The position numbers and the translations under genes are program-made. Shown here piece after piece: positions 22,869 through 38,610 of a stretch of 64,000 bases of DNA (position 1 is the first letter of the stretch; each line of letters opens with the position of its first letter). A model generated the notes under the pieces. The model had not been told where the DNA came from. It made no database searches and worked only from the letters and a program-made list of their open reading frames with translations. The DNA is taken from NCBI GenBank assembly GCA_963768055.1, contig CAVYGN010000001.1, positions 384,001 to 448,000 on the forward strand, read 5' to 3'. The DNA comes from an uncultured Spirochaetota bacterium (GTDB taxonomy: Bacteria > Spirochaetota > Brevinematia > Brevinematales > JAOACQ01).

Positions 22869-23192
22869 TTAACAAACAAAATAATTGATAGATTGTCGGA
22901 GCTTTTTGTTGAACGCGGAGCCCCGGAGTATATACGAAGCGATAATGGATCTGAATTTACGGCAAAGGCACTATGGAAATGGCTAAAAAGAGTCAATGTA
23001 AAAACATTGTATATTGAACCCGGGAGCCCATGGGAAAATGGGTATATTGAATCTTTTAATGGAAAATTAATGGATGAGTTTCTTAATGGAGAGCTGTTCG
23101 ATACCCTGCTTGAAGCAAAAGTATTGACCGGGAGATGGAGAAGGGAGTATAATCATGTACGGCCGCATAGTTCACTGGGTTATCGGCCGCCT
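22869..23192 (+). pseudogene. IS3-family transposase (rve integrase core) fragment
   Basis: PEYIRSDNGSEFTA, IEPGSPWENGYIESFNG, YNHVRPHSSLGYRPP; N-terminal part missing. Confidence 0.92.
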
Positions 23193-23819
23193 TTTCCTTG
23201 CCGCCATGATCAGATAGGCTCTTTCGATATTTTCTCTCTCGTGAATTTCATAATGAATATCTTTAAAATTTGACGCCGATAATTTCCCGACGACTTCATC
23301 TAATGTGTATTTATTAAATATTTCATCGTCCACGTTGCTGAGATTATCCAGTGTCGAGGGGCTGGCCATATATAAATATAATAGCCCGCCGTCTTTTAAT
23401 AAACCGTATATTTTGCTAAAATATGTTCCAAGGTCATTCCAGAAATAGAGGACATTGATCCCGATTATTTTGCTGAAGCACTTTTGGGAATTATCAGAAT
23501 TATATGTCAATAAATCGTCATGCGACAGAAAGACAGTTCCCGCGCCGATATGGTCTTTATTTTTCCTTAAGGCTTTTTTATACATGACCTTCGAGAAATC
23601 GATCCCGGAAACCGTTATATTTTGATCCCGCCCGGCCAGGATATTTATCCCCGTTCCGGCGCCGTAGCCGATCTCCAGGACATGATCACCGTCTACGGTT
23701 TTAACGCGGGGCATGATCCACTGGTACAGCTTCGCGTTTTTCCTCTCCATCCTTCCGGATATTATTTTACCTAATAAACCCGAGGGTTTTCTATACTGTT
23801 TTGCGATCAATTTTGACAC
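23172..23819 (-). CDS. class I SAM-dependent methyltransferase
   Basis: QYRKPSGLLG N-terminus, VLEIGYGAG, GIDFS, NVLYFW; its stop codon lies inside the IS3 remnant. Confidence 0.85.
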   Translation of the reverse strand: MSKLIAKQYRKPSGLLGKIISGRMERKNAKLYQWIMPRVKTVDGDHVLEIGYGAGTGINILAGRDQNITVSGIDFSKVMYKKALRKNKDHIGAGTVFLSHDDLLTYNSDNSQKCFSKIIGINVLYFWNDLGTYFSKIYGLLKDGGLLYLYMASPSTLDNLSNVDDEIFNKYTLDEVVGKLSASNFKDIHYEIHERENIERAYLIMAARKRRPITQ

Positions 23820-23888: not shown

Positions 23889-23986
23889 TTAATTCGAAAT
23901 TTCCAAAATGCCTCAACATTTTTGCCAATCTCGAAAACACCTTCATCCCAGTAATAAATTATAACAAGACCAAAACATCATGTCAA
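23889..23986 (-). promoter_or_regulatory. outward sigma70 promoter plus IS1380-like end motif (module a)
   Basis: TTGACA(23986-81)-N17-TATAAT(23963-58) with TG extension; CATTTTGGAAATTTCGAATTAA at 23910-23889. Confidence 0.7.
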
Positions 23987-24134
23987 ATCAGTTTTTGATT
24001 GTCGGCTCAACACAAACCTTCTCAAATGGGGCTTCCCCTTTATCGGCTTTGATAAAATATTTAAGACAAGATTTAACCAGCCTGGTGGAAGATAGAAGAT
24101 CTTGTTTCGAAAATTAATAACCTTGGGATCGAGA

Positions 24135-25292
24135 TCAGGGAAAAGCATAACCCGGATAGGTTGACCGGTTTGTCATTAAGTCTCTCACAAATTTCCCTGA
24201 CCGGGTTAAATCCGCCTCTCCCCAGCCGCCGTCAGTTTTAGTCCCATTAATTAAAAAAGATGTCGTTTCCCAGGGCACGTCTGAAAGAGAATAGTTGCAC
24301 CAGCTGATATTTTTACTGTTCAGGAAATTTATCCAGAGCCTGGCATTATTTAAATCAAGCGGTGTTGAAGGATTTAATCCTGAAATACAGGCTCCCCATT
24401 CCGTACAGAAAATGGCAATATTGGTTAACGCCGATGAAATACGGTTTGTCATCGAGAGAGGTTCTCCTGTATAAAAATGGGAAGTATACATAATATTTTC
24501 ATATTTCAGCGGATTGGCGGATGCATGGTGCTGGTCGATGCTCCAAAACTCGGTTCCGACAATTATAAGCGCATTGGAATCCCCCGCGCGGATTGCGGGT
24601 ATAATATACTCGGCATAAGGTTTTATACTGCTGTTCCACTTAACATGATTAGGCTCATTGCAGATCTCATAAATAACTTGTTTTTTCGCCCCATACAGAA
24701 ATGCCATCCTTTTAAAGAAATCATAAGCATTGGTTTTATGCAGATTCGGATCGCCGTCAAATAGGATTTGCCAATCGATTATACAGTAAATTCCGCATTC
24801 TTCAGTTATCCTTACGGCATCCTTTATATAATTTTCAAGAGCCGGATTATCTAAATATCCGGGTTCAATGACAGAGCCCGTACCGCTGCCCCAGTGTCCG
24901 CCTGCCGGCCAGAGTGGAACTCTAAGCACATCCATTTTCCAATTTTTTGACAGATATGATATAGCTTTATAGTTTATGAATTTTGCTTCATAATTCAGGC
25001 CGCGGAGGTACAGCCCCCTGAGCTGTACGGGATTGCCATATTCGTCGCAAAGCTGTGTCCCTACAATTTTCAATTTGCCGTGCCTGGCAACAGGCGATCC
25101 TTCAGGGTAAATTCCCAGTACCCCGCTATTGGTAAAAGGGAGATATTCCTGCCGGACCTGTAAGCTTGTCGTGATAGTTTCATCAGGTTCGGTATAGAAT
25201 GGTTCTAAATCAATACAGGATGTTAAACAGGCAATAACTGCAAGCATACAAGAAAATAAAAGGCATTTAATTCGAGATTTCCCATTTAGCAT
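24135..25292 (-). CDS. GH5 endoglucanase-like lipoprotein
   Basis: LTSC lipobox; HGKLKIVGTQL, IIDWQ, YEICNEP (acid/base), HFY, IFCTEWG (nucleophile), ISWCNYS. Confidence 0.9.
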   Translation of the reverse strand: MLNGKSRIKCLLFSCMLAVIACLTSCIDLEPFYTEPDETITTSLQVRQEYLPFTNSGVLGIYPEGSPVARHGKLKIVGTQLCDEYGNPVQLRGLYLRGLNYEAKFINYKAISYLSKNWKMDVLRVPLWPAGGHWGSGTGSVIEPGYLDNPALENYIKDAVRITEECGIYCIIDWQILFDGDPNLHKTNAYDFFKRMAFLYGAKKQVIYEICNEPNHVKWNSSIKPYAEYIIPAIRAGDSNALIIVGTEFWSIDQHHASANPLKYENIMYTSHFYTGEPLSMTNRISSALTNIAIFCTEWGACISGLNPSTPLDLNNARLWINFLNSKNISWCNYSLSDVPWETTSFLINGTKTDGGWGEADLTRSGKFVRDLMTNRSTYPGYAFP

Positions 25293-25541
25293 ATTGAAAC
25301 TCCAAAAATCCGAGCCCTAATGCGTTATACCAATACTTTATAAACCTTATCAGGACATGTCAATATAAATTCCGTCTTTCACAAACTTAAATTGGGCTGA
25401 TAAGCAGCATCGCCTTGGAAGTAGCGATCCGGAATATGATCTCTATATCTTTCAACAATAGCCTTTATTCATTCTTTCATCAATAATTATATCATTGTGT
25501 AAATTGATATTCAAAGTTTCATCTGGGAAATCCCGTTTTAT
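25267..25541. mobile_element. 275-bp segment bounded by two outward-facing IS1380-like end motifs (b, c)
   Basis: TAAATGGGAAATCTCGAATTAA (minus, 25288-25267) and CATCTGGGAAATCCCGTTTTAT (plus, 25520-25541); internal minus-strand TTGACA(25363-58)-N17-TAAAGT(25340-35). Confidence 0.5.
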
Positions 25542-26197
25542 ATTTGCTTCTTTTTTAAACTATCATGCGCCATAGCGGTAATCACTGTTAATATAATTAA
25601 ACCAAGCACAGTCAAACCGCTGGCGATTGATAGTGTTACAAAGACATCCGGGTCCGGGTTTGGTCCATTCAATCCGGAGAGATAACCATAAATGATAGGC
25701 ACAGGGACCATTAAAAGCTCCGCTGTAAAAAACCAGGGCCAAAGCAGAGCAAGAAATCCCCTGAAAACAGAAGGTGTTTTGTTCCATAACTTGAAGGATG
25801 ATTTTATTTTAAAACCGGCAATACCGCTTAGGATTAAGAACAAAATCGGCGCAAATCCTCCTCCAACAAGCAGGAGCAGAATCAACAGTAAATAAAGAAT
25901 GATACTGCCGAACTTTTTATGGATAAAAAAAGCGGACCAGGCCATGATGATTAGTCCTGTTATCACGGCCAGGATTCCTGTTATTAAATAGTTCGGAATG
26001 ATAGTCATCGCCGGTTCAACGCCAAAGGGGAAAGGCAACCCTTTGCCGGTATAGGCGTTGATAACTGTGGTGGTTATAGCGATATTGCCATGGAGGATTT
26101 CGCCAATCCCATGTTCCAACCCTAATATTCCGCCCAACACGCCGAAAGAAGACGCGGTGATCCTGGATGCGTTAATCCCTTTTTTGAAATCTAACAT
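25538..26197 (-). CDS. hypothetical multi-pass membrane protein
   Basis: Several TM segments, GLEHGIGEILHGN and EPAMTIIPNYLITGILA motifs; start moved to ATG 26197 after SD AAGGAG. Confidence 0.75.
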   Translation of the reverse strand: MLDFKKGINASRITASSFGVLGGILGLEHGIGEILHGNIAITTTVINAYTGKGLPFPFGVEPAMTIIPNYLITGILAVITGLIIMAWSAFFIHKKFGSIILYLLLILLLLVGGGFAPILFLILSGIAGFKIKSSFKLWNKTPSVFRGFLALLWPWFFTAELLMVPVPIIYGYLSGLNGPNPDPDVFVTLSIASGLTVLGLIILTVITAMAHDSLKKKQI

Positions 26198-26425
26198 TAT
26201 AATACTCCTTTTCAACAACAATTGTTAAAATTATAATAAATTTCTTTGTTGATAAAAAATCACTCCAAATTCTTACTGTTTACTATATCTTACTTTTGAA
26301 TTTATTATTAATCAATAGGTATTTTATCCTATTTAAATTTATTAGAAACGCCAAGGAAGGCGGGCATCATTTTATAAATAAACTTCGGCACGGCTTTTGT
26401 ATAGATTTTTATCTATGATAAAATT

Positions 26426-26458
26426 TTTTCCATTACGCAACTTTTTTATTCACTTATT
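26426..26458 (-). mobile_element. degenerate partner end of the 21622 transposon end
   Basis: Perfect 24-bp inverted copy of 21631-21654; the terminal CA expected at 26457-26458 reads TT. Confidence 0.5.
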
Positions 26459-26511
26459 TATATATAGGGCGGTTCCAAAAACCAACTTTAATTTTCGTTT
26501 GATTTATTGTT

Positions 26512-27435
26512 TTAATAGTCGGCAATTCTTTTTTCAATTCTATTTATTAAAAATGTAATCCATCTGGAGGGTTCATTTTTTTGTCCGAAATCAAAATCCG
26601 AATAATGCTTAACTATTGATTCAGCGTAAAACCTCCCATCTTTTGATTTCTCCCGAACATAATTTATCATACTATTGAAACTTTTGCTCTTTATAGCATA
26701 CGGAAACAGTGAAAGTACATCAATGACTCGTAAGATACCATAGGTTACAGCAGGATATTTTAATTTGGTAAAATCACTTCCTATCCCAAAACCATAAGGC
26801 CGCCATTTTTCGTTTCTTCTGTCCCAATGGGTCAATAATAAGTCAATTGCTCCGTTTAATTTTGGATCATTTCTATATTCTTCAAATTGGCCGAGCAGCA
26901 ATAAAATATTCTGATTATCCATTGGACATGATTCACTGTCTTGAAGCTTTTGACCGACGGCACGCTGTTTTGCGCAATGCCAGCCACCGTCTAATCTCTG
27001 TGTTTTAAAAATCAACTGAATGAATTTTTTATTCTTTTGTTCATTATTATATTTCATTTTTACTAATGAAGACAGAAGAATTGTTGGAATACAAAAATAG
27101 CTCGGTTTCATCTCTTTCGAAGTAATAAATGTCCCATCAGCCGATTGAAGATCGTACATTGTTTCCGCTTCTTTTTCAAGATTAATATCATTAACAGTTA
27201 ATCCAATATCTGCAAGGAAATACAGATCCCAATAAACATTCCCTTTATAAGAAAGTTCGCCTGTTATTAATGCCGTAAGTCCTTGAGAATCTTTTAGTTC
27301 ATTTACAATATTTTTTATTGAAATATCTGATAAAACATGTTTTACATCCGACTTTTTATCTAATAGCTGTAATTCTACTGCGTATTTCAACCATTTTGGT
27401 CCTTCAAGCAGCCAATCTATAATATTTTCATCCAT
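26512..27435 (-). CDS. hypothetical protein with prenyltransferase/squalene-cyclase-like repeats
   Basis: LQSADG, TQRLDGGWHC, FTKLKYP, EPSRWITF motifs; 307 aa. Confidence 0.6.
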   Translation of the reverse strand: MDENIIDWLLEGPKWLKYAVELQLLDKKSDVKHVLSDISIKNIVNELKDSQGLTALITGELSYKGNVYWDLYFLADIGLTVNDINLEKEAETMYDLQSADGTFITSKEMKPSYFCIPTILLSSLVKMKYNNEQKNKKFIQLIFKTQRLDGGWHCAKQRAVGQKLQDSESCPMDNQNILLLLGQFEEYRNDPKLNGAIDLLLTHWDRRNEKWRPYGFGIGSDFTKLKYPAVTYGILRVIDVLSLFPYAIKSKSFNSMINYVREKSKDGRFYAESIVKHYSDFDFGQKNEPSRWITFLINRIEKRIADY

Positions 27436-27480
27436 TTATAGGGCCTCTTATATATTCCAAGCCGTATACAATAAGCTTAA

Positions 27481-27997
27481 AGGCGGTTTAAAAACTGCCC
27501 TATCATGTACAAATAGACTAATTTAAGATAAAATAATAGTCAAGGTTAACATTGTAGAGGGGAATGTTAAAATGACAAAAATCAAGAAGCAGACGAATCA
27601 AGGACTGTTTGAATACCAGGAACGAATTGAAAAACTTGGCAAAACTCCATTAGACAAGCTTAACGAAAATATAGAATGGGAAGACTTCCGACCTATTCTA
27701 ACTGAACTGCTCGCCCTCAAAGAACAAAAGGCTCCAGGCGGCGCTTCACATTATGATTATGTTTTTATGTTCAAAATCCTCATTATTCAGAAGTATTATA
27801 ACCTTTCCGATGAGCATACAATTCATTTATAATGAGGCAAAAGGCGCAATATTTTACATAAACCCCATTGAAAATGGGGATATTTATGCCATGCTAAAGG
27901 TATTGATTAGAAATTTTGAAAATAAATTGGAATAAGAATTTTAATCAAATTGATGTTTGTGGATCACGGTTATAAAGAGTAGATATTGGAACCGCCA
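27481..27997 (+). mobile_element. internally deleted IS5-family element with TTAA duplication
   Basis: Ends AGGCGGTTTAAAAAC and (reverse complement) TGGCGGTTCCAATATC; TTAA at 27477-80 and 27998-28001; contains a transposase 5' fragment. Confidence 0.65.
27572..27832 (+). pseudogene. IS5-family transposase N-terminal fragment
   Basis: PLDKLNENIEWEDFRPIL...GGASHYDYVFMFKILIIQKYYNLSDE, then a premature stop. Confidence 0.88.
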
Positions 27998-28011
27998 TTA
28001 AATTCTTTTAT

Positions 28012-29037
28012 ATGAGGGCTATTATGCAATTAATCGATTTCAGGGGAAATAAAGCCTACCCCGACAGCTTCTGGGCAAATTCATCACCGGAATCCGAGGG
28101 ATTGGATTCGGAATATTTATTAAAAGCGCTTGAATACATAGACAAGCAGGATTATGAAATACATAGTTTCCTGGTTATCCGTCATGAAAAACTGGTTTTC
28201 GAATATTACGGCCGGGACAAACAGGCCGGCGGCATTCAGTTGACCCCGAATGACCTGCATAAAATGTGGTCGACCACTAAAACTATCACATCGGCTTTAA
28301 TTGGGATTGCAATTGATGAAGGATTCATTCCCGGCGTTAAGGCTAAGGTAATGGATTATTTCCGTGATGACGGCATCATAAATTTAACTGAAACCAAAGA
28401 GAAATTGACCATTGAAGACCTTCTGACTATGCAAAGCGGCCTGGATTATTCAGAGGATAGCGACAGCTCTCTGTTTTCAAGCACATATAATTCCAGTAAA
28501 TTTTTTCTTGACAGGCCTATGGTATCCATTCCCGGATACTTATGGAATTATAGCACAGGTAACTCGCAGATCCTGGCGGAAATCCTGCGGAAAGTTACAG
28601 CTAAAACGCTTTCGGATTACTGCTCGGAAAAGCTTTTTTTGCCGATGGGAATAGTTGATTTTAACTGGCTCTGGGATAAAAACGGGACATACTTCGGCGG
28701 CTGGGGCCTTTCCATCAAGCCGAGGGACTTGGCCCGTTTCGGCTGTCTTTACTTGAAAAAGGGACTTTGGAAAGACCGGGAACTGGTCCCTTCATCATGG
28801 GTGGAGACATCCACAAAAGCTTATGCGGCTACGCCATGGGCAGGCGGCAAATACGGCTATCACTGCTGGATACCCGATTTTGGAGGATTTGCCACCCTCG
28901 GGAAAATGGGACAGAGCATGTATATATTTCCTGATAAAGATTTAATTGCCGTTTTTACGGCTGCGCTTCCCATACAGATGGCGGATACTATTCTCAACTA
29001 TATAGTTGAGAATTATGTTCTTCAAGAATTGAATTAA
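28012..29037 (+). CDS. serine hydrolase, beta-lactamase-related (class C / nylonase-like)
   Basis: SxxK (STTK), LLTMQSGL, WNYST, PRDLARFG, YGYHCW; alternative start 28024. Confidence 0.88.
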   Translation: MRAIMQLIDFRGNKAYPDSFWANSSPESEGLDSEYLLKALEYIDKQDYEIHSFLVIRHEKLVFEYYGRDKQAGGIQLTPNDLHKMWSTTKTITSALIGIAIDEGFIPGVKAKVMDYFRDDGIINLTETKEKLTIEDLLTMQSGLDYSEDSDSSLFSSTYNSSKFFLDRPMVSIPGYLWNYSTGNSQILAEILRKVTAKTLSDYCSEKLFLPMGIVDFNWLWDKNGTYFGGWGLSIKPRDLARFGCLYLKKGLWKDRELVPSSWVETSTKAYAATPWAGGKYGYHCWIPDFGGFATLGKMGQSMYIFPDKDLIAVFTAALPIQMADTILNYIVENYVLQELN

Positions 29038-29124
29038 TATAAAACGCATTTTCCCCACGGATGTTATCGTTCATATATAGTTCTAGCATAGAAATAAGAT
29101 TATTTTTTGCTTTCCGTAAAAAGG

Positions 29125-29220
29125 CTATATTTTTATCACCAAAGCGTCCAATATTTTTCTTTGATCCTCTTCAGGCGTAGTGACGATCTTGCAGGCCGTT
29201 CCATTCATTGTAATGCTTCC
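29125..29220 (-). pseudogene. transposase C-terminal remnant, IS1634-like
   Basis: Manual translation GSITMNGTACKIVTTPEEDQRKILDALVIKI* resembles the T-P-x3-Q-x2-I-L-x2-L tail of IS1634 transposases; an end-like motif follows at 29039-29060. Confidence 0.45.
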
Positions 29221-29473
29221 CGCTTAATTATCTGGATTTTAACGAAACCGGAACACACCGGGAAGTAATGAGAAAGATAAAGAATATTGGCGATAAAAAA
29301 GGCTGGCTTTCAGCTTCTTCCGAATTACCTTCTGAGAAAGACTTGGATCTGGCGTATTATTCTCAATTTTTTACAAAATAAAATTGACTTTTATATTTTT
29401 TGTTATATTATATAATAACAATTATTACTTAATATTAATGAAAAAATCTTATTAATTAAAATGAGGAAAAATT

Positions 29474-30610
29474 ATGGGAAAAGGTAAATCGCCAAACAAT
29501 AATGATTCAAAGGGGATTTATGGCATATTGATTGCAATGGGCATAGGACTTATTATAGTTTTTCTGTCCGCTTTGAATTCCGGATGGTTATCAATCAGCA
29601 TTGGTCTCCTGGTTGCCGGTGCATCGATTATGGCAGGAGGCTTGCTGGGATTCCTGTTCGGTATTCCTCGATCGCTTCAAATCAGTGAATTAACAGGCGG
29701 GCAAGCGGATAAAACGGATAAAGGGGCATACAAAGCAAATACCAACCTCGAACAGATCTCGGACTGGCTTACTAAGATTCTCGTAGGAGTCGGACTGACA
29801 CAATTAACAAAGGTGCCTGAAAAATTGAATGATCTGGCAAAATTCCTTTCACCGGGATTCGGGGGTACGCCTCAATCGGAAATAATGGCTGTAACTATTG
29901 TGTTGTTGTTTTCTATTTCGGGTTTTTTGTTCGGTTACCTTTATACAAGATTGTTTGTTGGAGAACAGCTTAGAAAAGCTGACGATGCGGCTTTAGGAGA
30001 AATGATAAATGATGAAATTGGAAAACAGATGTCCCAGGATGCAAGAGCGCTGACGCTTGTTCAGCAGCACCTTAACCCGCGTAACGACACTCGGGCAGTA
30101 TCGTATGAAGAGTTAAGTGATGCTATCGCTAAGGCTTCTCCCGAAGAAAAAACAACAATATTCTATCAGGCAATGGAAATAAGAAACCAGAACTGGCAAA
30201 ACAATAAAGAGAAAATGGAGCGGACCATTCCGGTTTTCCAGGCCCTCGTTGATAGCGATAAGGAGAATTTATATCATAAAAATCATGGTCAATTAGGTTT
30301 CGCATTAAAGGACAAGAAAAAACCTGATTGGGAGGATGCAGAAAAGGAATTAAACACTGCTATTCGGATCCGCGGGGATTCGAAGACTCATGGCTGGCTG
30401 TATTATGAGTTCAATCGTGCAATCTGCCGAATCAACCTTGAATTACTAAAAGGAACAACTGGTCTTTCGCCCTATCATGATCAAATAATAGCTGATCTTA
30501 AGGAAGTCTATAGCAAAAGTGAACTTCAAAAATTGATTGAGGAAGACCAGACCATAATGGCATGGATGAATAGAAATAATGTGAAATTAGATGATCTTAA
30601 TTCCAACTAG
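29474..30610 (+). CDS. uncharacterised protein: N-terminal TM domain plus C-terminal TPR-like helices
   Basis: GLLGFLFGIPR, NTNLEQISDWLTKILVGVGL, FLFGYLYTRLF; then HGQLGFALKD...AIRIR...YEFNRAICRI. Confidence 0.7.
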   Translation: MGKGKSPNNNDSKGIYGILIAMGIGLIIVFLSALNSGWLSISIGLLVAGASIMAGGLLGFLFGIPRSLQISELTGGQADKTDKGAYKANTNLEQISDWLTKILVGVGLTQLTKVPEKLNDLAKFLSPGFGGTPQSEIMAVTIVLLFSISGFLFGYLYTRLFVGEQLRKADDAALGEMINDEIGKQMSQDARALTLVQQHLNPRNDTRAVSYEELSDAIAKASPEEKTTIFYQAMEIRNQNWQNNKEKMERTIPVFQALVDSDKENLYHKNHGQLGFALKDKKKPDWEDAEKELNTAIRIRGDSKTHGWLYYEFNRAICRINLELLKGTTGLSPYHDQIIADLKEVYSKSELQKLIEEDQTIMAWMNRNNVKLDDLNSN

Positions 30611-30794
30611 ATGATCATAATGATAGCAGTAAGTCCTTTGTTACAAATGATATTTATATTATATTAGCTTCAAAAAATTAAAGTGAGGGTCAACATCGTC
30701 TGGATTTCATCGAAAATTCTTGAAATCCACTAGCAATTTTTTTGAATAGTTCTTCTTTTTCGAGGAAAGAATGTGGTGAAGCTAATTCGATATA

Positions 30795-32408
30795 TTATAA
30801 CAGATTGGAGCCACTTTTGATACTATTGCTTTGGGAATTTAGATTATTGGTAATTTCTGTTTCGAGTTTTTCATTGTGGTCTTTCGGCAGTCCAAGTTGA
30901 ACTAGAAGATCACTACTGTAAAATGCTTGATTCCAATTCTCAGCGCTCTTGATCATTTTGATTAGAAGAGGATTAACTTTTATTCCTTTGAGATCTGCAT
31001 ATTTGAGATCGGCTCCATCGAGGTGAGCCCCCTCGATGTCGGCTCCAGAAAAAACAGCATATTCGAGGATAGCTCCATTGAAATCCGCATATTTGAGATC
31101 GGCTCCATCGAGGTGAGCCCCATCGAAGTCAGCCGCAGAAAAAACAGCATATTCGAGTATGGCTTCATTAAAAAATGCCTTTTTAAAGTTGGCGCTTTTA
31201 AAGTTTACCTTCATAAATTCGGCATGTTCAAGTCTAGCTTCTTGAAGATCGGCGCCCTCAAAGTCAGCGTGGATAAAATTTGTGTCCGAGAAATACGAGC
31301 CTTCGTTACCCCTAGGAAGAATAGAAGCATATTTGAGGTCAGCTCCTTGAAGAATGGCCTTCTTAAAGTTGGCGCCATAAAAACGTGCATATTCGAGATT
31401 AGCTCCTTGAAGATTGCCTTCCCTGAAGTCGGTCATCTCTAAATCTATCAATCGCAGGTTGTTTCCCTGGAATTGGGCACCTTTTAAGCTGGCCCCCTTG
31501 AAATGGGCTTTATCAAGGATAGCTCCCTGGAAATTGGCGTTATTCAGGTTAGCTCCATTGAAAATAGTCCCCGTAAGATGTGCTTTTTGAAGATTCACGG
31601 AATGCATGAATGCGGAATGCAGATCCATAAACGCTAGCCATGATTCTTTGAGATCTTCCTGGTGAAGATCTAATGTCCGACGAAAAGATTCCGGGTTAAA
31701 AGGTAAATATGTCATTATGATGACGAGCAGACATAGGGTCATCCAACGAGGTTTATTCCATTCACGGCGTTGATTCTCAGAGCAACGACGTATTTGCAAG
31801 AAAATAAGAGAGAATGTGATTAAACATGCAACATAGATCAGAGGATATCCTAATTCAGGGCGAGCCGAAGCCTTCCAGGCTATTATCCACAAAGCTATCG
31901 ATACCATCCAATAGAAAATAAAGGATGAAAGGATACGCGGCATAGTATTTGTAATATTGAAAATGGTTGTCATGCTCTCTATAGGAGGGGCGTTTGTCTT
32001 GGCTTTATTTTGATTAATTTGCCTGAGCTCATTTTCAAGCTGCAACCAGAAACCAAAGAAGATGTGAAGGTAGACTGTTATTATAATAAGAAGCATGGGA
32101 CCGACGATCAAAAAACCCAGAAACGAGATTGATGAGTCCACAAAAGGTATCTTAATCGAACCATTAGGTGCAAGAAGCAATTTATCGGATGCGCCAAGGG
32201 CGGTCAGCAAATTGAAGAGCACAACACCTAGAAGGGTTAGCATCGTTTTATTTGTCGTTTCCGAACAATTCTGATGTAATTTTAGAACCATATCATTGTG
32301 ATGCAGCGGGTTATGAGACAGTGGGTACCACCAGCAACGTGGAACCTTATTTCTATCAGAGAGGTTTGCCAGGAACGTTTTTAGAATAGAATTCGACTTT
32401 CCGATCAT
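30795..32408 (-). CDS. membrane protein with a C-terminal pentapeptide-repeat domain
   Basis: About five TM segments, then A(D/N)LxG repeats; recent 90-bp tandem duplication at about 30995-31170. Confidence 0.88.
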   Translation of the reverse strand: MIGKSNSILKTFLANLSDRNKVPRCWWYPLSHNPLHHNDMVLKLHQNCSETTNKTMLTLLGVVLFNLLTALGASDKLLLAPNGSIKIPFVDSSISFLGFLIVGPMLLIIITVYLHIFFGFWLQLENELRQINQNKAKTNAPPIESMTTIFNITNTMPRILSSFIFYWMVSIALWIIAWKASARPELGYPLIYVACLITFSLIFLQIRRCSENQRREWNKPRWMTLCLLVIIMTYLPFNPESFRRTLDLHQEDLKESWLAFMDLHSAFMHSVNLQKAHLTGTIFNGANLNNANFQGAILDKAHFKGASLKGAQFQGNNLRLIDLEMTDFREGNLQGANLEYARFYGANFKKAILQGADLKYASILPRGNEGSYFSDTNFIHADFEGADLQEARLEHAEFMKVNFKSANFKKAFFNEAILEYAVFSAADFDGAHLDGADLKYADFNGAILEYAVFSGADIEGAHLDGADLKYADLKGIKVNPLLIKMIKSAENWNQAFYSSDLLVQLGLPKDHNEKLETEITNNLNSQSNSIKSGSNLL

Positions 32409-32496
32409 AATTGTGTCCTCCCCAGAGAGATTTATTAAAAAAAAGGAACAAAGATCCTTCTTCGCTTTTAAAAATGATGCTTTTCACATAGCAGTA

Positions 32497-32900
32497 ATAA
32501 GCCGAGATTACCCAAATGACTAATTATTTTTTCCACTTTCAAAGATCTTTTATACCCATATTGATTATATCATGACAAAAAAATGGTGTCAAACCATTTT
32601 TGGACAGTCGGCTCATTAAAAACCTACTTGATTCTCTCTACGCTTTTAGGGCATTATTCCTTCCCTATCCAATTATTTTATCAGATTATCTAAATCTAAA
32701 AAATAAGGAAGAAGTAGAATTATATCTTGGCTTTAGATTGAATGGTGATCTTGATACAATAATATACAAAACAGACAGTTTCATTGAAGAGGATAAATTA
32801 TCATTGACGGCTAATAACAGAGGGTTTATAATGATACCAATGCGGATTTGGAGGCATTTTTTCGGAAGAACAAGGCGTCAAATGGGAAATATTGGATAAA
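32497..32900. mobile_element. 404-bp segment bounded by two outward-facing IS1380-like end motifs (e, f), each with an outward promoter
   Basis: Minus: TTGACA(32592-87)-N17-TATAAT(32569-64), then CATTTGGGTAATCTCGGCTTAT(32518-497). Plus: TTGACG(32804-09)-N17-TATAAT(32827-32), then CAAATGGGAAATATTGGATAAA(32879-900). Confidence 0.6.
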
Positions 32901-35235
32901 ATATATTACGAACCGTTGGAGGTTAAAAATCAAAATCATATACGGCGTTATCATCATATCCGTCTTCTGCTTAAATGCCTATGCGGTTGACTATGACCGC
33001 AGTATAAATTCCTTCAGGCTGAAACCCGTTAAAAATGAGATCCTGCAGAATCAAAAATACGTCGATGAGATGACAAAAAATGTCACGGGAGAAATGAATT
33101 TCGAGGGTGCGGTTCCTTCAAGACTGGAATTATGGGGGAACAATGCATTTCCGCTGCTTCAGGATAAGGACGGCGGAGTCATTGCAGCGGGCATTTGTTC
33201 GAATTCGCGGGCCGTTGTGCTCGGGCATGACTGCTTCCTCAGCGAAAAATGTATTGAGCAGCCCCCGGTAAAGGCCTTTTTGATGAATTCCGTAAACTGG
33301 CTCCTGGACAGGAAAAAAAATGCTAGGGTATTGCTGTTTAACGCATCCGATCTCGTCAAAATGCTTGAGGAAACCGGCAGTAAATGCGACGCCGTGTCTA
33401 AATTCCCGGATAATCTGGACGGCTATGATCTTGTAATAATAAGGCTTCCGTATAGTCTGGATCAGAATTTTACTGAAGACTCTGAAAAAATATTAAGCGG
33501 GTATTATAACGGCGGGGGGCCGGTTCTCTGCGCAGGCGAGGGCTGGGTTTACTGTTCTTACGGGGACGGCAAAAACGGAAAAAGCCTTGAAAATGACTGG
33601 ATAGCCAATAAACTGTTCGTTCCCCGGGGTTTATTTATAAGCCCGATTTACGGCGGATCGATGGTCAAAAAAGTATCGAGGAATATCGGTGAATGGAATC
33701 ATTTTTTAGTTAATTTGTCACAGTTCATCGAGATTTTAAACGGGGAGAAATTTCTGGACAGGCAGAGACTGATTGATTTCGCCGCGAACTTCTATGAAAG
33801 CTCCCTCCTGCGAAAAGACTGGAGGGAAGTCCTGGGAAGCGATAACTTCGAAATATTAAAAGACTTTCTTATAACCAATCTCCCTTCAATAAGCCCTGAT
33901 GAAAATGCCCCGATATCCCCCGCGAATCCGAAAAAATATCTGATGGTTTTACTATACGATCTGTTATACAGAAGCGATTATGAAGATTTCAGCCCGCTGA
34001 GAGAGGTATTTTATAAATTTCCCGGTTTAAACGTCCATGATTTCGAAACTGGCAGAACGAACAGGTTCGAGGCAAAAGTGAATCCGAACATTCCAAGATG
34101 GCATAATCTCGGGGTCTGGGCCAGGCCAGGCGAGAATCTTGAAATAAAAATCCCGGAAAATCTGGTTAAGCGGGGCATCTGCCTGCAGATAGGCTCCCAT
34201 ACCGATTCATTATTATGGGCTCCCGGAGACGGGTGGATGAGATGGCCGGTTATCTCCCAGAGAATAAGCATTACAGGTGAAATCACTGAAGTCAGATCAT
34301 TGTACGGGGGAATCGTTTACCTCGATCTGCCTGACAGAGCGGATACAAATGAAACTCTGAAAACTGAAACTGTCAGAGTAAAGGGAGGAGTGTATTCTCC
34401 TCAGTACACCCTGGGCGACGATCCCGAAAGTTGGAAGCTGAATTTGAAAGAGGCAAAGAGCCCATGGGTTGAGTTCGCCTCGAAAGGAATGGTAATAACA
34501 TCGCCAAAGGACAACGCATTAAAGGTGGATGATCCCGGGAGGCTGATGGCATTCTGGGAAAAAGTTGCAGAAGCTTATCCTGAACTGCTGGGTAAAAAAA
34601 TAAAAAATTATGCGGACAGGTATGTCAGCGACAGGCAGATTTCAGCAGGCTACATGCACGCGGGATATCCCGTAATGACGTATATGGATGTCTGCGATTA
34701 CGTTCTGGGCAATGAATGCGACGCGGCGGGGCTCAAGGATTATAATTTATTTACAAACGGATCTTGGGGACATTTTCATGAGGTCGGGCATAATCATCAG
34801 GGGCTGGAAACTTTCAGCCAGGCAATCGAAGTAACGGTAAATATCTTCACTCTTTATGTAATGGATAAGGTCGTAGGAATAAGGCCGGGAGACGATCCGT
34901 ATTTGCGATCCTATCCTCCGAAAGTCAGGAAATATCTCGCAAATCCGGATTTCAGCAGGTGGAGTGAAGACCCTTTTGTCGCCCTTTTTACCTATATATA
35001 TACGATAAGGGAATTCGGGTGGGAAGCGATAACAAAAACATTTTTAAGCTATGACAGGCTCTCCAAAAAGCCTTCAACCGATAATGAAAAAATAGACACA
35101 TGGGTCGTTCTTTACTCCAGGGCCGTGGGGAAAAATTTAACCTCATATTACAGGGCCTGGGGATGGCCCGTCAGTGAAAATGCGGAAAAGGAGATTTCGG
35201 ACCTTCCCATGTGGCATTGGAAAGCCGATTTGTGA
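32848..35235 (+). CDS. M60-family (enhancin-like) metallopeptidase, secreted
   Basis: LGVWARPGE, LQIGSHTD, YGGIVY, SPWVEF, ISAGYMHAGYP, WGHFHEVGHNHQ...EVTVNIF. Start is uncertain: an SD-preceded ATC at 32929 begins a signal peptide. Confidence 0.9.
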   Translation: MEAFFRKNKASNGKYWIKYITNRWRLKIKIIYGVIIISVFCLNAYAVDYDRSINSFRLKPVKNEILQNQKYVDEMTKNVTGEMNFEGAVPSRLELWGNNAFPLLQDKDGGVIAAGICSNSRAVVLGHDCFLSEKCIEQPPVKAFLMNSVNWLLDRKKNARVLLFNASDLVKMLEETGSKCDAVSKFPDNLDGYDLVIIRLPYSLDQNFTEDSEKILSGYYNGGGPVLCAGEGWVYCSYGDGKNGKSLENDWIANKLFVPRGLFISPIYGGSMVKKVSRNIGEWNHFLVNLSQFIEILNGEKFLDRQRLIDFAANFYESSLLRKDWREVLGSDNFEILKDFLITNLPSISPDENAPISPANPKKYLMVLLYDLLYRSDYEDFSPLREVFYKFPGLNVHDFETGRTNRFEAKVNPNIPRWHNLGVWARPGENLEIKIPENLVKRGICLQIGSHTDSLLWAPGDGWMRWPVISQRISITGEITEVRSLYGGIVYLDLPDRADTNETLKTETVRVKGGVYSPQYTLGDDPESWKLNLKEAKSPWVEFASKGMVITSPKDNALKVDDPGRLMAFWEKVAEAYPELLGKKIKNYADRYVSDRQISAGYMHAGYPVMTYMDVCDYVLGNECDAAGLKDYNLFTNGSWGHFHEVGHNHQGLETFSQAIEVTVNIFTLYVMDKVVGIRPGDDPYLRSYPPKVRKYLANPDFSRWSEDPFVALFTYIYTIREFGWEAITKTFLSYDRLSKKPSTDNEKIDTWVVLYSRAVGKNLTSYYRAWGWPVSENAEKEISDLPMWHWKADL

Positions 35236-35250
35236 CTTCTGCAAGGATCG

Positions 35251-36087
35251 ATGATGGAGGATGAAATGCCGGATAAGATCGCCGCTCTGCTCGGGCCTGT
35301 CCAGGAAACCCTGCTTCTCCCCTTATGGGGACGGGCTGTAGAATCGCGTAAGAAAAATGGAAAACTTTTCGACAAAACCGCCCTCGAAGTCATCGAAAGG
35401 ATCGATTACGACTTTTCTGCGATCGCCGGGAATATAACTTTTTACAGTCTTTATGGCTGGATAGCCCGCAGCCTGCATATAGATCAGACGATAAAGAAAT
35501 TCGCCGGCGGCAGGAAAAATCCCGTTATTGTCAATATAGGCTGCGGCCTGGACACGACATTTAACCGCGTCGATGACGGAAAAATGACCTGGTATAATCT
35601 CGATCTTCCGGATGTAATAAACCTCCGGTCGAAATTCATTTCAGAAAATGAAAGGAGCGCCTCCATCGGCTGCTCGTTTCTTGATTACCGGTGGATGGAA
35701 AAATTAAACAACATGGAAAAGCCTCTCTTTATTGCTGCCGGCTTGCTTTATTATTTCGATGAAGAAGAGGTAAGGGATTTCTTTTTAAAAATAGCGGAAA
35801 AATTCCCGGGCAGTGAAATGATTTTAGACATATCTTCCCCTTTTGGCGTAATATTAGCGAATAAATTTGTTCTTGAAAGCACCGGCATGAATAAAAGCGC
35901 GGTTATGAAATGGGGCGTTAAAAACGCTAAAATCCTCGAAGGCTGGGATAAAAGAATAAAAATCCTGGAACAATATCCGATTTTTATAGGCATGAAAACA
36001 GGTCTTCCGATCGGCCAAAAAATAATGCTTTTCATCGGGGATTATTTTTTTAATGCCTGTTCGATGGTTCACCTTAAATTCGTTTAG
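35251..36087 (+). CDS. class I SAM-dependent methyltransferase (LCM/TcmP-like)
   Basis: VQETLLLPLWGRA, VNIGCGLDT, WYNLDLPDVI; likely start 35266 after GGAGG. Confidence 0.88.
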   Translation: MMEDEMPDKIAALLGPVQETLLLPLWGRAVESRKKNGKLFDKTALEVIERIDYDFSAIAGNITFYSLYGWIARSLHIDQTIKKFAGGRKNPVIVNIGCGLDTTFNRVDDGKMTWYNLDLPDVINLRSKFISENERSASIGCSFLDYRWMEKLNNMEKPLFIAAGLLYYFDEEEVRDFFLKIAEKFPGSEMILDISSPFGVILANKFVLESTGMNKSAVMKWGVKNAKILEGWDKRIKILEQYPIFIGMKTGLPIGQKIMLFIGDYFFNACSMVHLKFV

Positions 36088-36134
36088 TAATCAATAAAAG
36101 CACTAAAGGTTTATCACTATTCCAATTCAGGCTT

Positions 36135-36356
36135 ATGAAAGATGGAATTTTGATCGGCACTACCGCCTATGATGTCACTGACGAAACCCGTGTTGAAACA
36201 GCAATCGGAGGCAGGGGAAAAAGACGCCTGCACATTCAAATCTTGTATCCTGCCAGATCAACCAACAATTGTATCCAGGCAACTAACAGAAGCATATCAT
36301 TAACTGCAGCTTTAGAAAAAAATTGGGCTCAATACGGAGCAATGCGAGGTTTTTAG
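36135..36356 (+). pseudogene. N-terminal fragment of an alpha/beta hydrolase (PAF-acetylhydrolase-like)
   Basis: IGTTAYDVTDETRVE...RRLHIQILYPA resembles the N-terminus of that family; the ORF stops at 73 aa. Confidence 0.5.
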
Positions 36357-36503
36357 GAAAACCTGAAGCTATTAATGCCCGAATATATTAATGGGCTTTA
36401 GAAACTTGATGGCTTCCCGTTTGTTTTAAAAAGTCTGAGTGTTATAATACAAAAGCTAAACAAATATTGAAATAAATATTAAATGGTATCTTATCGGGTA
36501 TAT

Positions 36504-38051
36504 TTATTCGAAATGCTTGAAAGGATAACTTTTCCATGCTTCCCTTAATGGTTTATGCAACCCCCTGCAAAGAAAAATCTCTGAGTTTTTTTCATCCGGC
36601 ATCGCATATTTAGCCCCGATTTTCCCTTCGATTTCCACCTCGGTAAAATAATCGGGCAGGATTTTGTCAGCATAGTCGGGGGCTATAAAAAGCATCACAT
36701 CGCCGGTATTATTGCCCGGCCCCCAGAAATACCAGATATTATGTCCGCAGACAGGCTCGGGCAAGCCGTATTTCGGACCGTAATAATGGAGGGCGCCGGC
36801 TTCTCCATAATTTGCAGTCATAATACATACCTTCTTTTTATCGGAATCGCTCAATTTTTGATAGACTCCGGCGACAGCTTCCGTCATTTCCTCCCACCCG
36901 AAACAGTCGGCGAAAACCTGCGGAAGGGATCCGGAGCCATACTTTTCATCCGAGTCAAACTTTTTCCCGCCTGAATATTTAATAAAGGCTTCCGGCGAAA
37001 GTACGGGCCGGTTGTTTGGTATGGATATTACAGCGCGTATTGAGATGATTAAAGTGACGAGCGCGGTGATGGCTGCGGCCGCTCTTTTAAGCCAGATTAT
37101 TTTAATTTTTTCGATAAGCCGGGTTATGAAAACCGCTCCCCCGGCAAAAAGGACGGTATAATACGGGTAAATAAGGTAAGACTTTGCCTGCTGCAGACTA
37201 AAAATCGCCCAGAGGATAAAAAAAGAAAGCCCGAAAACCCTGTATTTTTTGCCTTCGTTGTTGAACAGGAAAAATATTATTCCCGATATCCAAACAGGAA
37301 AAGCATATTGGTTAAGATATTGAAGCGGGGATGAAAATCTGAGTTTGGCCGCATAACCTTTAAAATACTCGATAATGGGGAAATTGTAATAAGCCTGCCA
37401 GAGAATGAAGGGAAGGAAAATAGACGCTGCGATCAAACCGCCGAGCAGAAAACGCCTGTCAAAAAGAAATTTCCTGTCTTTAAGGGCCAGGAACGACAGG
37501 AATAACGCAAAACCCAGGTAAAGCATAGTGACCTTGGACATCAGACCGAGACCGGCAAAAAGCCCGAAATACAGCCAGTATTTTTTATCCCCCGATACAA
37601 GCAGAAGCAAAATCATATACAGGGAAAGCGTCCAGAAGATCCTGTCGAACGCATTATAATCAAAATTGCTATATATAAAGTAAGGGGCCAGGGTTACGCA
37701 GACGAGGCAGATTAACGTGGCGTAAATGCTCCCTCCCATTTTTTTTACCATCAAAGCCGAAACAATAATAACACCGGAACTGAGCAATGCCGGTACCAGG
37801 TGCAGGGAAAAGTAAGAAGTCCCCAATAAAGCCCGGACTCCCGCCAGGATCAAAGGAGCGATAGGCGGCACTTCGAGATAAGCCCAGCCTAGGCGGTCGG
37901 AAAGGGATATATACAGAAGTTCATCACGGAAAATACCGTAATGGTAAGGATAGAGACAGATAATCAGATTAATGATAATAAAAAATGAAATAACCGCTGT
38001 TTCCCAGAGTAATATTTTCTTCTTTAATAACCAGGATATAAAATCCTCCAT
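36504..38051 (-). CDS. GT39/ArnT-like (PMT_2) membrane glycosyltransferase
   Basis: YGIFRDELLY, EVPP, GLGLMSK, FADCFGWEE, NYGEAGAL; many TM segments. Confidence 0.85.
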   Translation of the reverse strand: MEDFISWLLKKKILLWETAVISFFIIINLIICLYPYHYGIFRDELLYISLSDRLGWAYLEVPPIAPLILAGVRALLGTSYFSLHLVPALLSSGVIIVSALMVKKMGGSIYATLICLVCVTLAPYFIYSNFDYNAFDRIFWTLSLYMILLLLVSGDKKYWLYFGLFAGLGLMSKVTMLYLGFALFLSFLALKDRKFLFDRRFLLGGLIAASIFLPFILWQAYYNFPIIEYFKGYAAKLRFSSPLQYLNQYAFPVWISGIIFFLFNNEGKKYRVFGLSFFILWAIFSLQQAKSYLIYPYYTVLFAGGAVFITRLIEKIKIIWLKRAAAAITALVTLIISIRAVISIPNNRPVLSPEAFIKYSGGKKFDSDEKYGSGSLPQVFADCFGWEEMTEAVAGVYQKLSDSDKKKVCIMTANYGEAGALHYYGPKYGLPEPVCGHNIWYFWGPGNNTGDVMLFIAPDYADKILPDYFTEVEIEGKIGAKYAMPDEKNSEIFLCRGLHKPLREAWKSYPFKHFE

Positions 38052-38071
38052 GCTTTTAACATTTGTTTCAC

Positions 38072-38185
38072 TTAATCTGAGATTTCCCAGATATCACTGT
38101 TTTATCCGATTTTTCCCAAATGACACCCAACACTCTCCCGTTTGAGAGATTATTTTATTATAATCCCGGAATACATGCCTGTCAA
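38072..38185 (-). promoter_or_regulatory. outward sigma70 promoter plus two tandem IS1380-like end motifs (module d)
   Basis: TTGACA(38185-80)-N17-TATAAT(38162-57); CATTTGGGAAAAATCGGATAAA(38122-101) and TATCTGGGAAATCTCAGATTAA(38093-72), downstream of the IS1380 transposase remnant. Confidence 0.7.
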
Positions 38186-38319
38186 TGTCAAAATCAGGTT
38201 TTCTTTCCATAAAATCCCTTCGATATTAACTTAAAATCAGATTTCAGGCGATTTCCTGATAACCTTTATACAAAAAGGGGACAGTAACACCTTGTAAAAT
38301 CTGATATCGAATTATAGTG

Positions 38320-38610
38320 TTAACCAACGCCAAACAGTAACCTTAATCTATGTAATCTATCAAGGATAGCGGCAAACAACCCTTTCGGTACGGCTACTTC
38401 CGCCATCTGGAAAACCACATAGCGAGCATGGCTGACAACCTTTGCTCCGATTTTGATTAGCTTTTCCCTGAGAGTCGTCATGGTCCAGTGTTTCATTACT
38501 CTGGGTAAAGCTGAATGCCGGAAGAAGTTTCCAAGATTATAGGCAAGAACAAATAACTGGAGCCTGACATGATTATCGATAAAATCATGACAGGAGAGCC
38601 TTGTCCAAGC
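38320..38610 (-). pseudogene. IS1380-family transposase C-terminal fragment
   Basis: Not in the ORF track. Manual translation: AWTRLSCHDFIDNHVRLQLFVLAYNLGNFFR...WTMTTLREKLIKIGAKVVSHARYVVFQMAEVAVP...*. Confidence 0.9.

Follow-up and report, generated by a model that had tools for sequence, protein, structure and literature searches.

In an uncultured Spirochaetota bacterium (Brevinematia; Brevinematales; JAOACQ01), the right ends of decayed insertion sequences (IS) of the IS1380 family have very probably been reused as promoters of the genes located downstream of them. This reading, to which we assign a probability of about 0.85, comes from the analysis of a stretch of 64,000 nucleotides (positions 384,001 to 448,000 of contig CAVYGN010000001.1, assembly GCA_963768055.1; hereafter, the window). 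A first-pass annotation of this window had noticed a motif of 22 bp that recurs seven times between 23889 and 38185, is preceded at five sites by a sigma70-type promoter and was proposed to be the end of IS1380-like elements. The identity of the motif, the anatomy of the element, the number and orientation bias of its remnants and their junctions with the downstream genes were all directly observed.

According to the proposed mechanism, the non-coding tail of 211-264 nt between the transposase stop codon and the right terminal inverted repeat (IRR) would hold a complete sigma70-type promoter firing outward through the inverted repeat (IR). Elements of different IS1380 lineages (named A, B1, B2 and B3 below) would have inserted at TTWAA-like sites in the promoter, the 5′ untranslated region (UTR) or the first codons of genes of a flexible, IS-scarred island. 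Deletions would then have removed the transposase gene and the left end, leaving remnants of 113-506 bp that always keep the promoter and the IR and that would now act as promoters of a methyltransferase, a GH5, a pentapeptide, an M60 and a GT39 gene. The frame opened by the ATG of the B2 lineage continues through the IR, so that an insertion in the first codons of a gene could be survived as an N-terminal fusion, as seems to have happened in the GH5 gene.

The motif is the right end of an IS1380 element

The window was scanned with the IUPAC motif of the first-pass annotation, and the seven sites were recovered with 0-2 mismatches each at 23889-23910(-), 25267-25288(-), 25520-25541(+), 32497-32518(-), 32879-32900(+), 38072-38093(-) and 38101-38122(-). 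Only 25267-25288(-) is an exact match. When up to three mismatches were allowed, the window contained these seven matches against 0.83 expected, a number reached in none of 100 shuffles, in a test that is partly circular because the motif was derived from the same seven sites. The 8-mer core TGGGAAAT alone was not enriched in the window (4 matches versus 5.6 expected). Independent support for the motif was provided by the whole genome (G000; 3.69 Mb in two contigs, C1 and C2, 41% G+C), where 37 matches with at most two mismatches were found, 24 of them with a promoter scoring at least 10/12 just inside.

Three inverted pairs of motif matches, about 1.65 kb apart, delimit three intact copies of an element of 1659 bp that are 99.6-99.9% alike, which confirmed that the motif matches the ends of intact IS1380 elements. 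This element, here called type A, ends in 17-bp IRs (left CCCACATTTCCCAGATG, right CATTTGGGAAATATCGG) and its three copies are flanked by perfect 5-bp target duplications (TTTAA, TTAAA and TTTAA). Ends of IS1380 elements in ISfinder begin with CC, as both of these do. The element contains a single open reading frame (ORF) of 445 amino acids that encodes an IS1380 transposase (NF033539, 378.9 bits against a cut-off of 180); its size, single ORF, IRs, 5-bp duplication and transposase model all agree with membership of the IS1380 family, whose elements typically measure about 1.65 kb, have one transposase ORF and short imperfect IRs, and duplicate 4-5 bp of target. An important conclusion of the comparison of the flanks of the intact copies is that the motif is the 17-bp IRR followed by the 5-bp target-site duplication of IS1380-family elements. 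The first 17 nt of the 22-bp end proposed before are therefore the IRR, and its last 5 nt are the duplicated target and not part of the IS.

The transposase gene is oriented away from the left end, and 223 nt separate its stop codon from the right end. As the first-pass annotation wrote it, the motif runs outward from the interior of the element and lies at the transposase-distal end, in agreement with its suggestion of right ends. The 223-nt non-coding tail contains a predicted outward promoter, TTGACA-N17-CATAAT, located 34 nt from the IR, and nothing comparable is found at the left end (IRL) of the intact element. The anticipated parallel with ISEcp1, whose outward promoter lies near the IRR, is in this way matched by a complete candidate promoter in the tail. 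Outward promoters of this kind are known from ISEcp1 and ISPme1 but do not occur in every IS1380 element.

The remnants in the window

Near-consensus promoters with a spacer of 17 nt were found at the five sites where they had been reported. The remnants to which they belong are the following:

23889..24022 (-): solo right-end tail, B1, about 134 bp (nhmmer, 64.9 bits; similarity to other tails stops near 24022); target-duplication-like sequence 23889-23893, IR 23894-23910, -10 TATAAT 23958-23963, -35 TTGACA 23981-23986, 17-nt spacer
25267..25541 (-): internally deleted IS1380 derivative, B2, resembling a miniature inverted-repeat transposable element (MITE), at 25272-25536 (265 bp), flanks TTAAT / TTTAT
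25272-25363 (-): right tail of this derivative, from its IR to its -35; -35 TTGACA 25358-25363, -10 TAAAGT 25335-25340, 17-nt spacer, GGAG-N8-ATG with the ATG at 25290-25292, IR 25272-25288
25520-25536: IRL end of this derivative, with an inward TTGAAT-N17-TATAAT adjoining and then a 76-nt scrap of transposase gene
32497..32664 (-): solo right-end tail, B1, about 168 bp (58.5 bits; inner extent 167 nt); IR 32502-32518, -10 TATAAT 32564-32569, -35 TTGACA 32587-32592, 17-nt spacer
32788..32900 (+): solo right-end tail, B3, about 113 bp (49.4 bits; 85.2% identity over 115 nt to C1:555021-555134); -35 TTGACG 32804-32809, -10 TATAAT 32827-32832, 17-nt spacer, IR 32879-32895
38072..38100 (-): lone IR (38077-38093) and flank of an older IS1380 element; 20/22 positions match the IRR of remnant C1:644445
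38101..38607 (-): type-A remnant, 89.7% identity over 506 nt to the intact element; target-duplication-like sequence 38101-38105, IR 38106-38122, -10 TATAAT 38157-38162, -35 TTGACA 38180-38185, 17-nt spacer, transposase C-terminus 38323-38607

The distance between the -10 and the motif is 47, 46, 45 and 46 nt in four modules and 34 or 63 nt at 38.1 kb, one nucleotide lower throughout than the figures of the first-pass annotation, a matter of counting convention. Alignment of the tails separated them into four subfamilies, A (38101; 34 nt from -10 to IR), B1 (23889 and 32497), B2 (25267) and B3 (32879), and every site of the window has closer relatives elsewhere in the genome. The modules come from different IS1380 lineages, as had been supposed. 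The sequences between promoter and motif, described earlier as dissimilar, are so between subfamilies; within B1, the 23889 and 32497 tails are 70.6% identical over 136 nt.

The site at 25520(+) has no promoter because it is the IRL of the 265-bp deleted element whose right end is 25267(-). The pieces of this derivative match the B2 tail, a transposase remnant (C1:1580228-1580302) and the IRL region; both ends are present, as in a MITE, and the 5-nt flanks agree at only 4/5 positions. The other four modules have one end only. The 32497 and 32879 tails are arranged back to back and would fire into the divergent pentapeptide and M60 genes. At 38.1 kb, a type-A element inserted 7 nt inside the older end at 38072, cutting off the rest of the older element, and the native 5′ UTR of the GT39 gene directly adjoins. 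The type-A remnant still encodes transposase residues 351-445 with 98.9% amino acid identity (NF033539, 74.8 bits, model positions 347-417), and is the transposase remnant that had been noticed just upstream of the 38.1-kb copies.

Tails of the B lineages are linked to transposase genes to different degrees. The B2 tail at 25267 is 78-82% identical to the tails C1:977591, C1:1579382 and C2:1359763, each located after transposase remnants; the remnants that adjoin B2 tails and one B1-like tail are C1:977823-978636, C1:1579611-1580330, C1:644671-645206 and C2:1359428-1359538. B1 resembles the tail of remnant C1:644445 weakly, at 62% over about 165-225 nt by way of C1:667030 and C2:1885066, with IR and promoter in register. 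A transposase-linked B3 copy was not found in this genome, which has only one other B3 copy (C1:555023); among intact relatives, L010 and L017, for example, have IRRs (CAAATGGGAAATCCCGG) similar to the B3 IR, CAAATGGGAAATATTGG.

Of the three decayed type-A tails, those at window 38101 and C2:572855 have a perfect TATAAT as their -10, versus CATAAT in the three intact elements. This could reflect lineage drift or selection for a stronger promoter after fixation.

Decayed tails retain a predicted promoter and mostly face open reading frames

The genome was searched with a tail profile that begins shortly before the -35 and continues to the IS end, and complete tails were counted at E below 1e-8. 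There are 26 such tails, 3 in the intact copies and 23 in decayed ones. In all 26 the similarity ends at the end of the IR, the flanks are unrelated, and a predicted outward promoter lies 34 or 45-47 nt from the IR. Similarity that stops at the IS end and is followed by unrelated flanks identifies the terminus of a transposable element and not an operator. How far inward the 23 decayed copies reach varies from 77 nt, which takes in just the -35, to over 1000 nt, as random deletion from the inside would give, and no two decayed tails are near-identical (60-92% identity).

Retention of the promoter in the decayed tails is complete: it scores at least 10/12 in 23/23, at least 11 in 19 and is perfect in 11, while only 2.1% of random genomic 118-mers reach 10/12. 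Moreover, a co-directional ORF of at least 70 amino acids lies ahead of 21 of the 23 decayed tails; its start is between -24 and +90 nt of the IS end in 20 cases and at +171 in one, and many of these ORFs are preceded by a Shine-Dalgarno sequence of their own, located 13-35 nt past the IS end. This orientation bias is significant both for the 21/23 (binomial P 3e-5 against 0.5) and for the 20/23 within 90 nt (P 2e-7 against a measured raw-ORF background of 0.34). In contrast, none of the three intact copies, which are evidently recent, faces such an ORF, and two of them face or interrupt ORFs of the opposite strand.

Outside the window, at C1:359345-359384, two IS1380-type ends are placed head to head with only TTTAA between them. 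One is a right tail with promoter (+) and the other a lone IR (-), and an ORF of 163 amino acids starts from an ATG inside the IR. This arrangement could have arisen by two insertions at a shared target, or be the fossil of an IRR-IRL junction.

Junctions with the downstream genes

The modules of the window point into the five genes named by the first-pass annotation:

23172-23819 (-): class I methyltransferase gene; start 71 nt beyond the profile end of the 23889 tail
24135..25292 (-): GH5 (cellulase family) lipoprotein gene; Pfam PF00150, 147 bits
30795-32408 (-): pentapeptide-repeat gene; start 90 nt beyond the profile end of the 32497 tail
to 35235 (+): M60 peptidase gene; frame already open inside the B3 tail, from the TTG at 32848
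36504-38051 (-): GT39/PMT_2 glycosyltransferase gene; target of the predicted 38101 promoter

Homologues in related genomes (referred to by G numbers) were compared for three of the five genes, the methyltransferase, the GH5 and the GT39. The methyltransferase homologue of G004 (74% identity) has its own promoter-like upstream region, and it becomes similar to the window about 45 nt before the start codon, at a point 29 nt past the IS end. In the GH5 family, three paralogues or orthologues share the N-terminus M[RK]NIL.M[RK].S[KR]K..LLF...SC, whereas the predicted protein of the window begins MLNGKSRIK-CLLFSCMLAVIACLTSC. Its first nine codons (MLNGKSRIK) come from the B2 tail and IR and replace the native N-terminus, which indicates that the element landed inside the N-region of the signal peptide; the DNA similarity to G006 extends to window position 25268. 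An ankyrin-repeat gene precedes the GT39 gene in G009, G006 and G002, as well as a paralogue on contig C2 of G000, and in all of them the GT39 gene has its own ribosome-binding site. The older IS end of the window lies about 25 nt upstream of this native ribosome-binding site. The GT39 gene of G001 has received an independent B2 MITE of 192 bp, with a perfect TTAAG duplication, about six codons into the gene, and the ATG of this MITE is in frame with it (MLNGKFQLR-KEILL). A GT39 copy in G003 that is 97% identical over 1546 nt has no tail upstream. When the tail profile was run at E up to 1, no tail was found beside the homologues in G003, G009, G006, G004 and G012, and partial tails were found in G001 and G002. 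The first-pass annotation had asked whether homologues of the downstream genes begin at the same motif junction; those of the methyltransferase, GH5 and GT39 genes have native upstream regions instead. Native upstream regions cut by an IS end would fit insertion followed by decay.

There are three GT39 paralogues in the genome (C2:12479-14049, C2:1192959-1194566 and window 36504-38051), of which the copy at C2:12479 follows an ankyrin-repeat gene; GH5 is also multi-copy. A second GT39 unit bounded by IS ends was considered at C2:1192453-1195535 and rejected: its two IR-like sites are lone left ends, and the gene has its own start and no right-end tail. With respect to the M60 gene, its frame has no ATG or GTG near the signal peptide (..KIKIIYGVIIISVFCLNAYA), and the in-frame ATG of the other B3 copy (C1:555023) reads GCG here.

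Other mobile-element scraps and compositional features are present in the window. A segment of about 450 bp (27477-27927) is repeated many times in G003 (88% identity) and G004 (69-74%) and is single-copy in more distant relatives; its ORF, 27572-27832, matches the N-terminal part of a DUF772 transposase domain, which makes it another IS scrap of the island. The ORF 22893-23273 contains an rve_3 integrase core (97.8 bits) and is an IS3-like transposase fragment overlapping the 3′ end of the methyltransferase gene on the opposite strand. The 10 kb between 6001 and 16000 show a strong negative AT skew (-0.27 to -0.34) together with negative GC skew, unlike the rest of the window.

A putative cassette of promoter, Shine-Dalgarno sequence and start codon in B2 elements

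In G003, which belongs to the same genus, 7 copies carry a B2 tail paired to a piece of transposase gene, and an IRL match about 1.65 kb away is listed for 5 of them. One of these copies, when examined, encoded an IS1380 transposase (379.7 bits). The intact B2 elements of G003 contain, in order, TTGACA-N17-TAAAAT, about 30 nt, GGAG, 8 nt, ATG CTA AAT GGG AAA TCC CGA and the IS end. The predicted Shine-Dalgarno sequence and start codon that read out through the IR thus belong to the autonomous B2 element.

In-frame fusions occur in 3 of about 12 B2 tails, namely the GH5 gene of the window, C1:1579382 and the GT39 gene of G001. At C1:313301, the B2 leader frame ends in a TAATG that overlaps the gene start, and in the remaining B2 tails it stops before a gene with its own start. 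For the GH5 gene of the window and the GT39 gene of G001, no other plausible start is left besides the B2 ATG, and translation of both would probably begin at the IS-borne codon.

Spacing and hairpin in IS1380 relatives

The tail was also studied in 80 IS1380 loci from many phyla, whose transposases share 63-81% amino acid identity with the one described above; the nearest are from metagenome-assembled genomes of Spirochaetota. A recognisable IRR motif was located 120-400 nt after the transposase stop in 65 of the 80, with tails of 211-264 nt (median 230). In these 65 relatives, promoter-like matches of at least 9/12 were concentrated at offsets 36-37 (11 loci) and 46-47 (9 loci), with 10 at the other 81 offsets. 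The spacing is therefore inherited within the clade, in two classes separated by about one helical turn, and the fixed distance between -10 and IR is largely a matter of descent.

About 25 nt inside the IR, the tails of many relatives (L004-L044 and others) also contain a GC-rich hairpin in which compensatory changes are seen (e.g., CCCACG..GGTCGTGGG and CCGACG..GGTCGTCGG). With the hairpin specified by eye, 60.6% of the cells were paired, versus 52.3% when shuffled (0/500) and 36-46% when slid, which is modest support; RNAalifold found no consensus structure in 56 tails of the relatives. In B1 tails, the hairpin is formed by the IR and a subterminal inverted copy of it. The hairpin is possibly a transposase site, a stabiliser of the 5′ UTR or an attenuator.

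Alternative explanations

The first-pass annotation had interpreted the island as an array of captured units, in which each promoter-end-gene unit was moved by one-ended IS1380 transposition and the IS bodies were lost later. Members of the IS1380 family are the classic case of one-ended capture (PMC9330008, section 7.3), and the five tails lie within 14.3 kb where 0.09 would be expected (Poisson P 4e-8, about 1e-5 after window correction). Further, the island is not syntenic in 30 relatives, the GH5 and GT39 genes belong to multi-copy families in which the island copy is the one with the IS tail, and the sequences upstream of the modules are not the native neighbours of the genes. The clustering, however, is equally explained by a recently acquired, IS-tolerant island that contains other IS scraps (rve_3, DUF772). 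A transposition unit would consist of a whole IS, the cargo, a surrogate end and a matching duplication, and here neither an IS body nor a surrogate right end was found. Transposase sequence is kept only in the 38.1-kb remnant and a left end only at 25267, and the four modules with a 45-47-nt spacing are without transposase. A position weight matrix (PWM) built from 25 IRs detected no IR-like site in right orientation downstream of the five genes, a soft negative because surrogate ends are weak matches; between 20000 and 42000 the only extra match scoring at least 9 was 23481(+) (13.1), on the wrong strand and inside the methyltransferase gene. Homologues of three of the genes have native upstream regions, the 97% identical GT39 copy of G003 has no upstream tail, and the GH5 junction falls inside the coding region relative to the paralogues, as simple insertion gives. 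Capture of cargo units is for these reasons an unlikely account of the island.

A slightly less probable explanation, and one that we consider improbable, is that the short modules are active MITEs, moved as small units and mobilised in trans by intact IS1380 transposases. Both ends are indeed present in two B2 elements, the 265-bp derivative at 25272-25536 and the 192-bp element of G001 with its perfect TTAAG duplication, and the 32497(-) and 32879(+) modules are outward-facing right ends 404 bp apart whose flanks, ATAAG and ATAAA, agree at 4/5 positions. At TTWAA-like targets, however, a 4/5 match is what chance would give. Nothing resembling a left end is within reach of the 23889 and 32497 modules, the inner limits vary from copy to copy (77 to more than 1000 nt) without any unit of fixed length, and the decayed tails, at 60-92% identity, are not near-identical. 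Far less probable still is that the motif is a transcription-factor operator or a cis-regulatory leader RNA of a regulon of surface- and glycan-related genes. Such an element would account for the constant distance that separates the -10 from a motif placed in the predicted 5′ UTR, for the hairpin that can form in the interval from -10 to IR or by pairing with the IR, with the modest covariation described above, and for the fact that the driven genes mostly encode envelope or secreted proteins. On the other hand, the similarity spans the promoter, the spacer and up to 1 kb of the IS interior, the same motif terminates intact transposable elements with target duplications, and it is present in IS1380 elements of many phyla. 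No relevant Rfam family was matched in the whole window at gathering thresholds or between 22500 and 39500 at E up to 5, where only a chance snoRNA match (E 1.5) appeared. The stand-alone operator that the first-pass annotation had named as an alternative was rejected, because the tails are similar along their whole length and this similarity stops precisely where the IS ends.

The reuse of decayed right ends as promoters is the explanation that we prefer, and several points weigh against it. Promoter activity is read from the sequence of the hexamers. Since the sequences upstream of the modules are not the native neighbours of the genes, rearrangement or movement after insertion must be assumed. 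The test of orientation was made on raw ORFs and not on curated genes, one of the ORFs (C1:644445) has only 82 amino acids and one begins as far as 171 nt away. Promoter function alone does not account for the conservation of the IR in the decayed copies. Three in-frame uses of the B2 ATG among about 12 tails are no more than chance would give if selection is ignored. Finally, an IS origin of the B3 tail is suggested by its IR, the position of its promoter and a 69% similarity over 72 nt to the B2 tail.

Implications

Outside clinical resistance genes, few cases allow counting how often the promoters of IS become permanent promoters of genes. The existence of 23 decayed tails, all with intact promoters and 21 of them before genes, together with three intact copies that are not before genes, makes this a clear case, found in nature, of promoters becoming fixed once the IS has decayed. 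The B2 elements further indicate that an autonomous IS can carry a promoter, a ribosome-binding site and a start codon that read through the terminal repeat and can replace the N-terminus of a gene. For annotation, the tails mark likely transcription starts and, in the GH5 gene, what is probably the true start codon.

The conservation of the promoter position across phyla suggests that the outward promoter serves the element itself, which would bear on the transposition pathway of the IS1380 family. A possible purpose of the cassette is to drive the transposase gene across the IRR-IRL junction in a circular or tandem intermediate. A broader scenario, which we find rather doubtful, is that a phylum-spanning IS1380 clade keeps an outward cassette for its own ends (a promoter whose distance to the IR is about 35 or about 46 nt, a conserved hairpin and, for one of the lineages, Shine-Dalgarno sequence and ATG), and that this spirochaete genus exapted two dozen decayed copies as promoter, ribosome-binding-site and start-codon units, even donating the charged N-region of a lipoprotein signal peptide. 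If so, IS tails would be a standing source of expression signals for horizontally acquired surface-protein genes.

Comparison with known systems

The organisation described here resembles that of ISEcp1, which likewise consists of one transposase gene, a non-coding tail of about 200 nt with a complete outward promoter and the IRR, with the driven gene downstream. In the ISEcp1 copy of an E. coli plasmid (locus L089), the transposase stop is at 2754 and the element presumably ends about 208 nt after it. Its promoter, TTGAAA-N18-TACAAT at 2858-2887, has the hexamers given in PMC9330008. The right end of this copy (2902-2960) can pair with an inverted copy located 31 nt further in (14 nt, 86%), as in B1 tails. 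Truncated ISEcp1 copies of about 200 bp that keep the promoter are described in section 9 of PMC9330008, where the presence of one of them upstream of blaOXA-232 is called 'promoter fixation'. The differences are also clear. The transposase of ISEcp1 is only 24.7% identical, its IR sequence is another one and its distance from -10 to IR is about 61 nt versus 34 or 45-47 nt here. ISEcp1 drives resistance genes such as blaCTX-M in enterobacterial hosts, whereas the present host is an environmental spirochaete and the genes are not related to resistance; and one-ended capture, unlikely for the units of the window, is documented for ISEcp1.

Strong outward promoters and the capture of flanking DNA are reported for both ISEcp1 and ISPme1 in PMC9330008 (sections 4.4, 7.3, 8 and 9), and in ISPme1 the promoter is at the 3′ end (section 7.3), as it is here. 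The same source states that the transposition pathway of the family is not known. IS1247 of Paracoccus, with 1672 bp, IRs of 16/13 bp and a 5-bp duplication (PMC3281130, Table 2), can be compared with the type-A element, with 1659 bp, IRs of 17 bp and a duplication of the same length. The transposable modules of ISPme1 and IS1247 retain the whole IS together with flanking DNA, in contrast to the units of the window, in which there is no IS body and no module boundaries were found.

Correia elements of Neisseria are further examples of MITEs that bear promoters. MITEAba12 of Acinetobacter is, as described in PMC6382973, a short non-autonomous IS derivative with an outward sigma70-type promoter; it measures 113 bp and is not derived from IS1380. 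According to the same source, start codons in its terminal repeat provide the first four residues of neighbouring proteins, MQQS, which is the same principle as the MLNGK provided by B2. In contrast to MITEAba12, most modules of the window are one-ended, and the B2 cassette includes a Shine-Dalgarno sequence as well and already exists in the autonomous parent IS. At the genome scale, IS481 of Bordetella pertussis also illustrates how many copies of one IS shape flanking transcription (PMC6161684), with the difference that those copies are intact and number more than 230, whereas here decayed tails of several lineages coexist with only three intact copies. In conclusion, the outward promoters of ISEcp1 and ISPme1, promoter fixation and promoter-bearing MITEs were already known; what is new is the host and the scale, the way in which decayed copies contrast with intact ones, and the existence of a promoter, ribosome-binding-site and ATG cassette in an autonomous IS1380 element.

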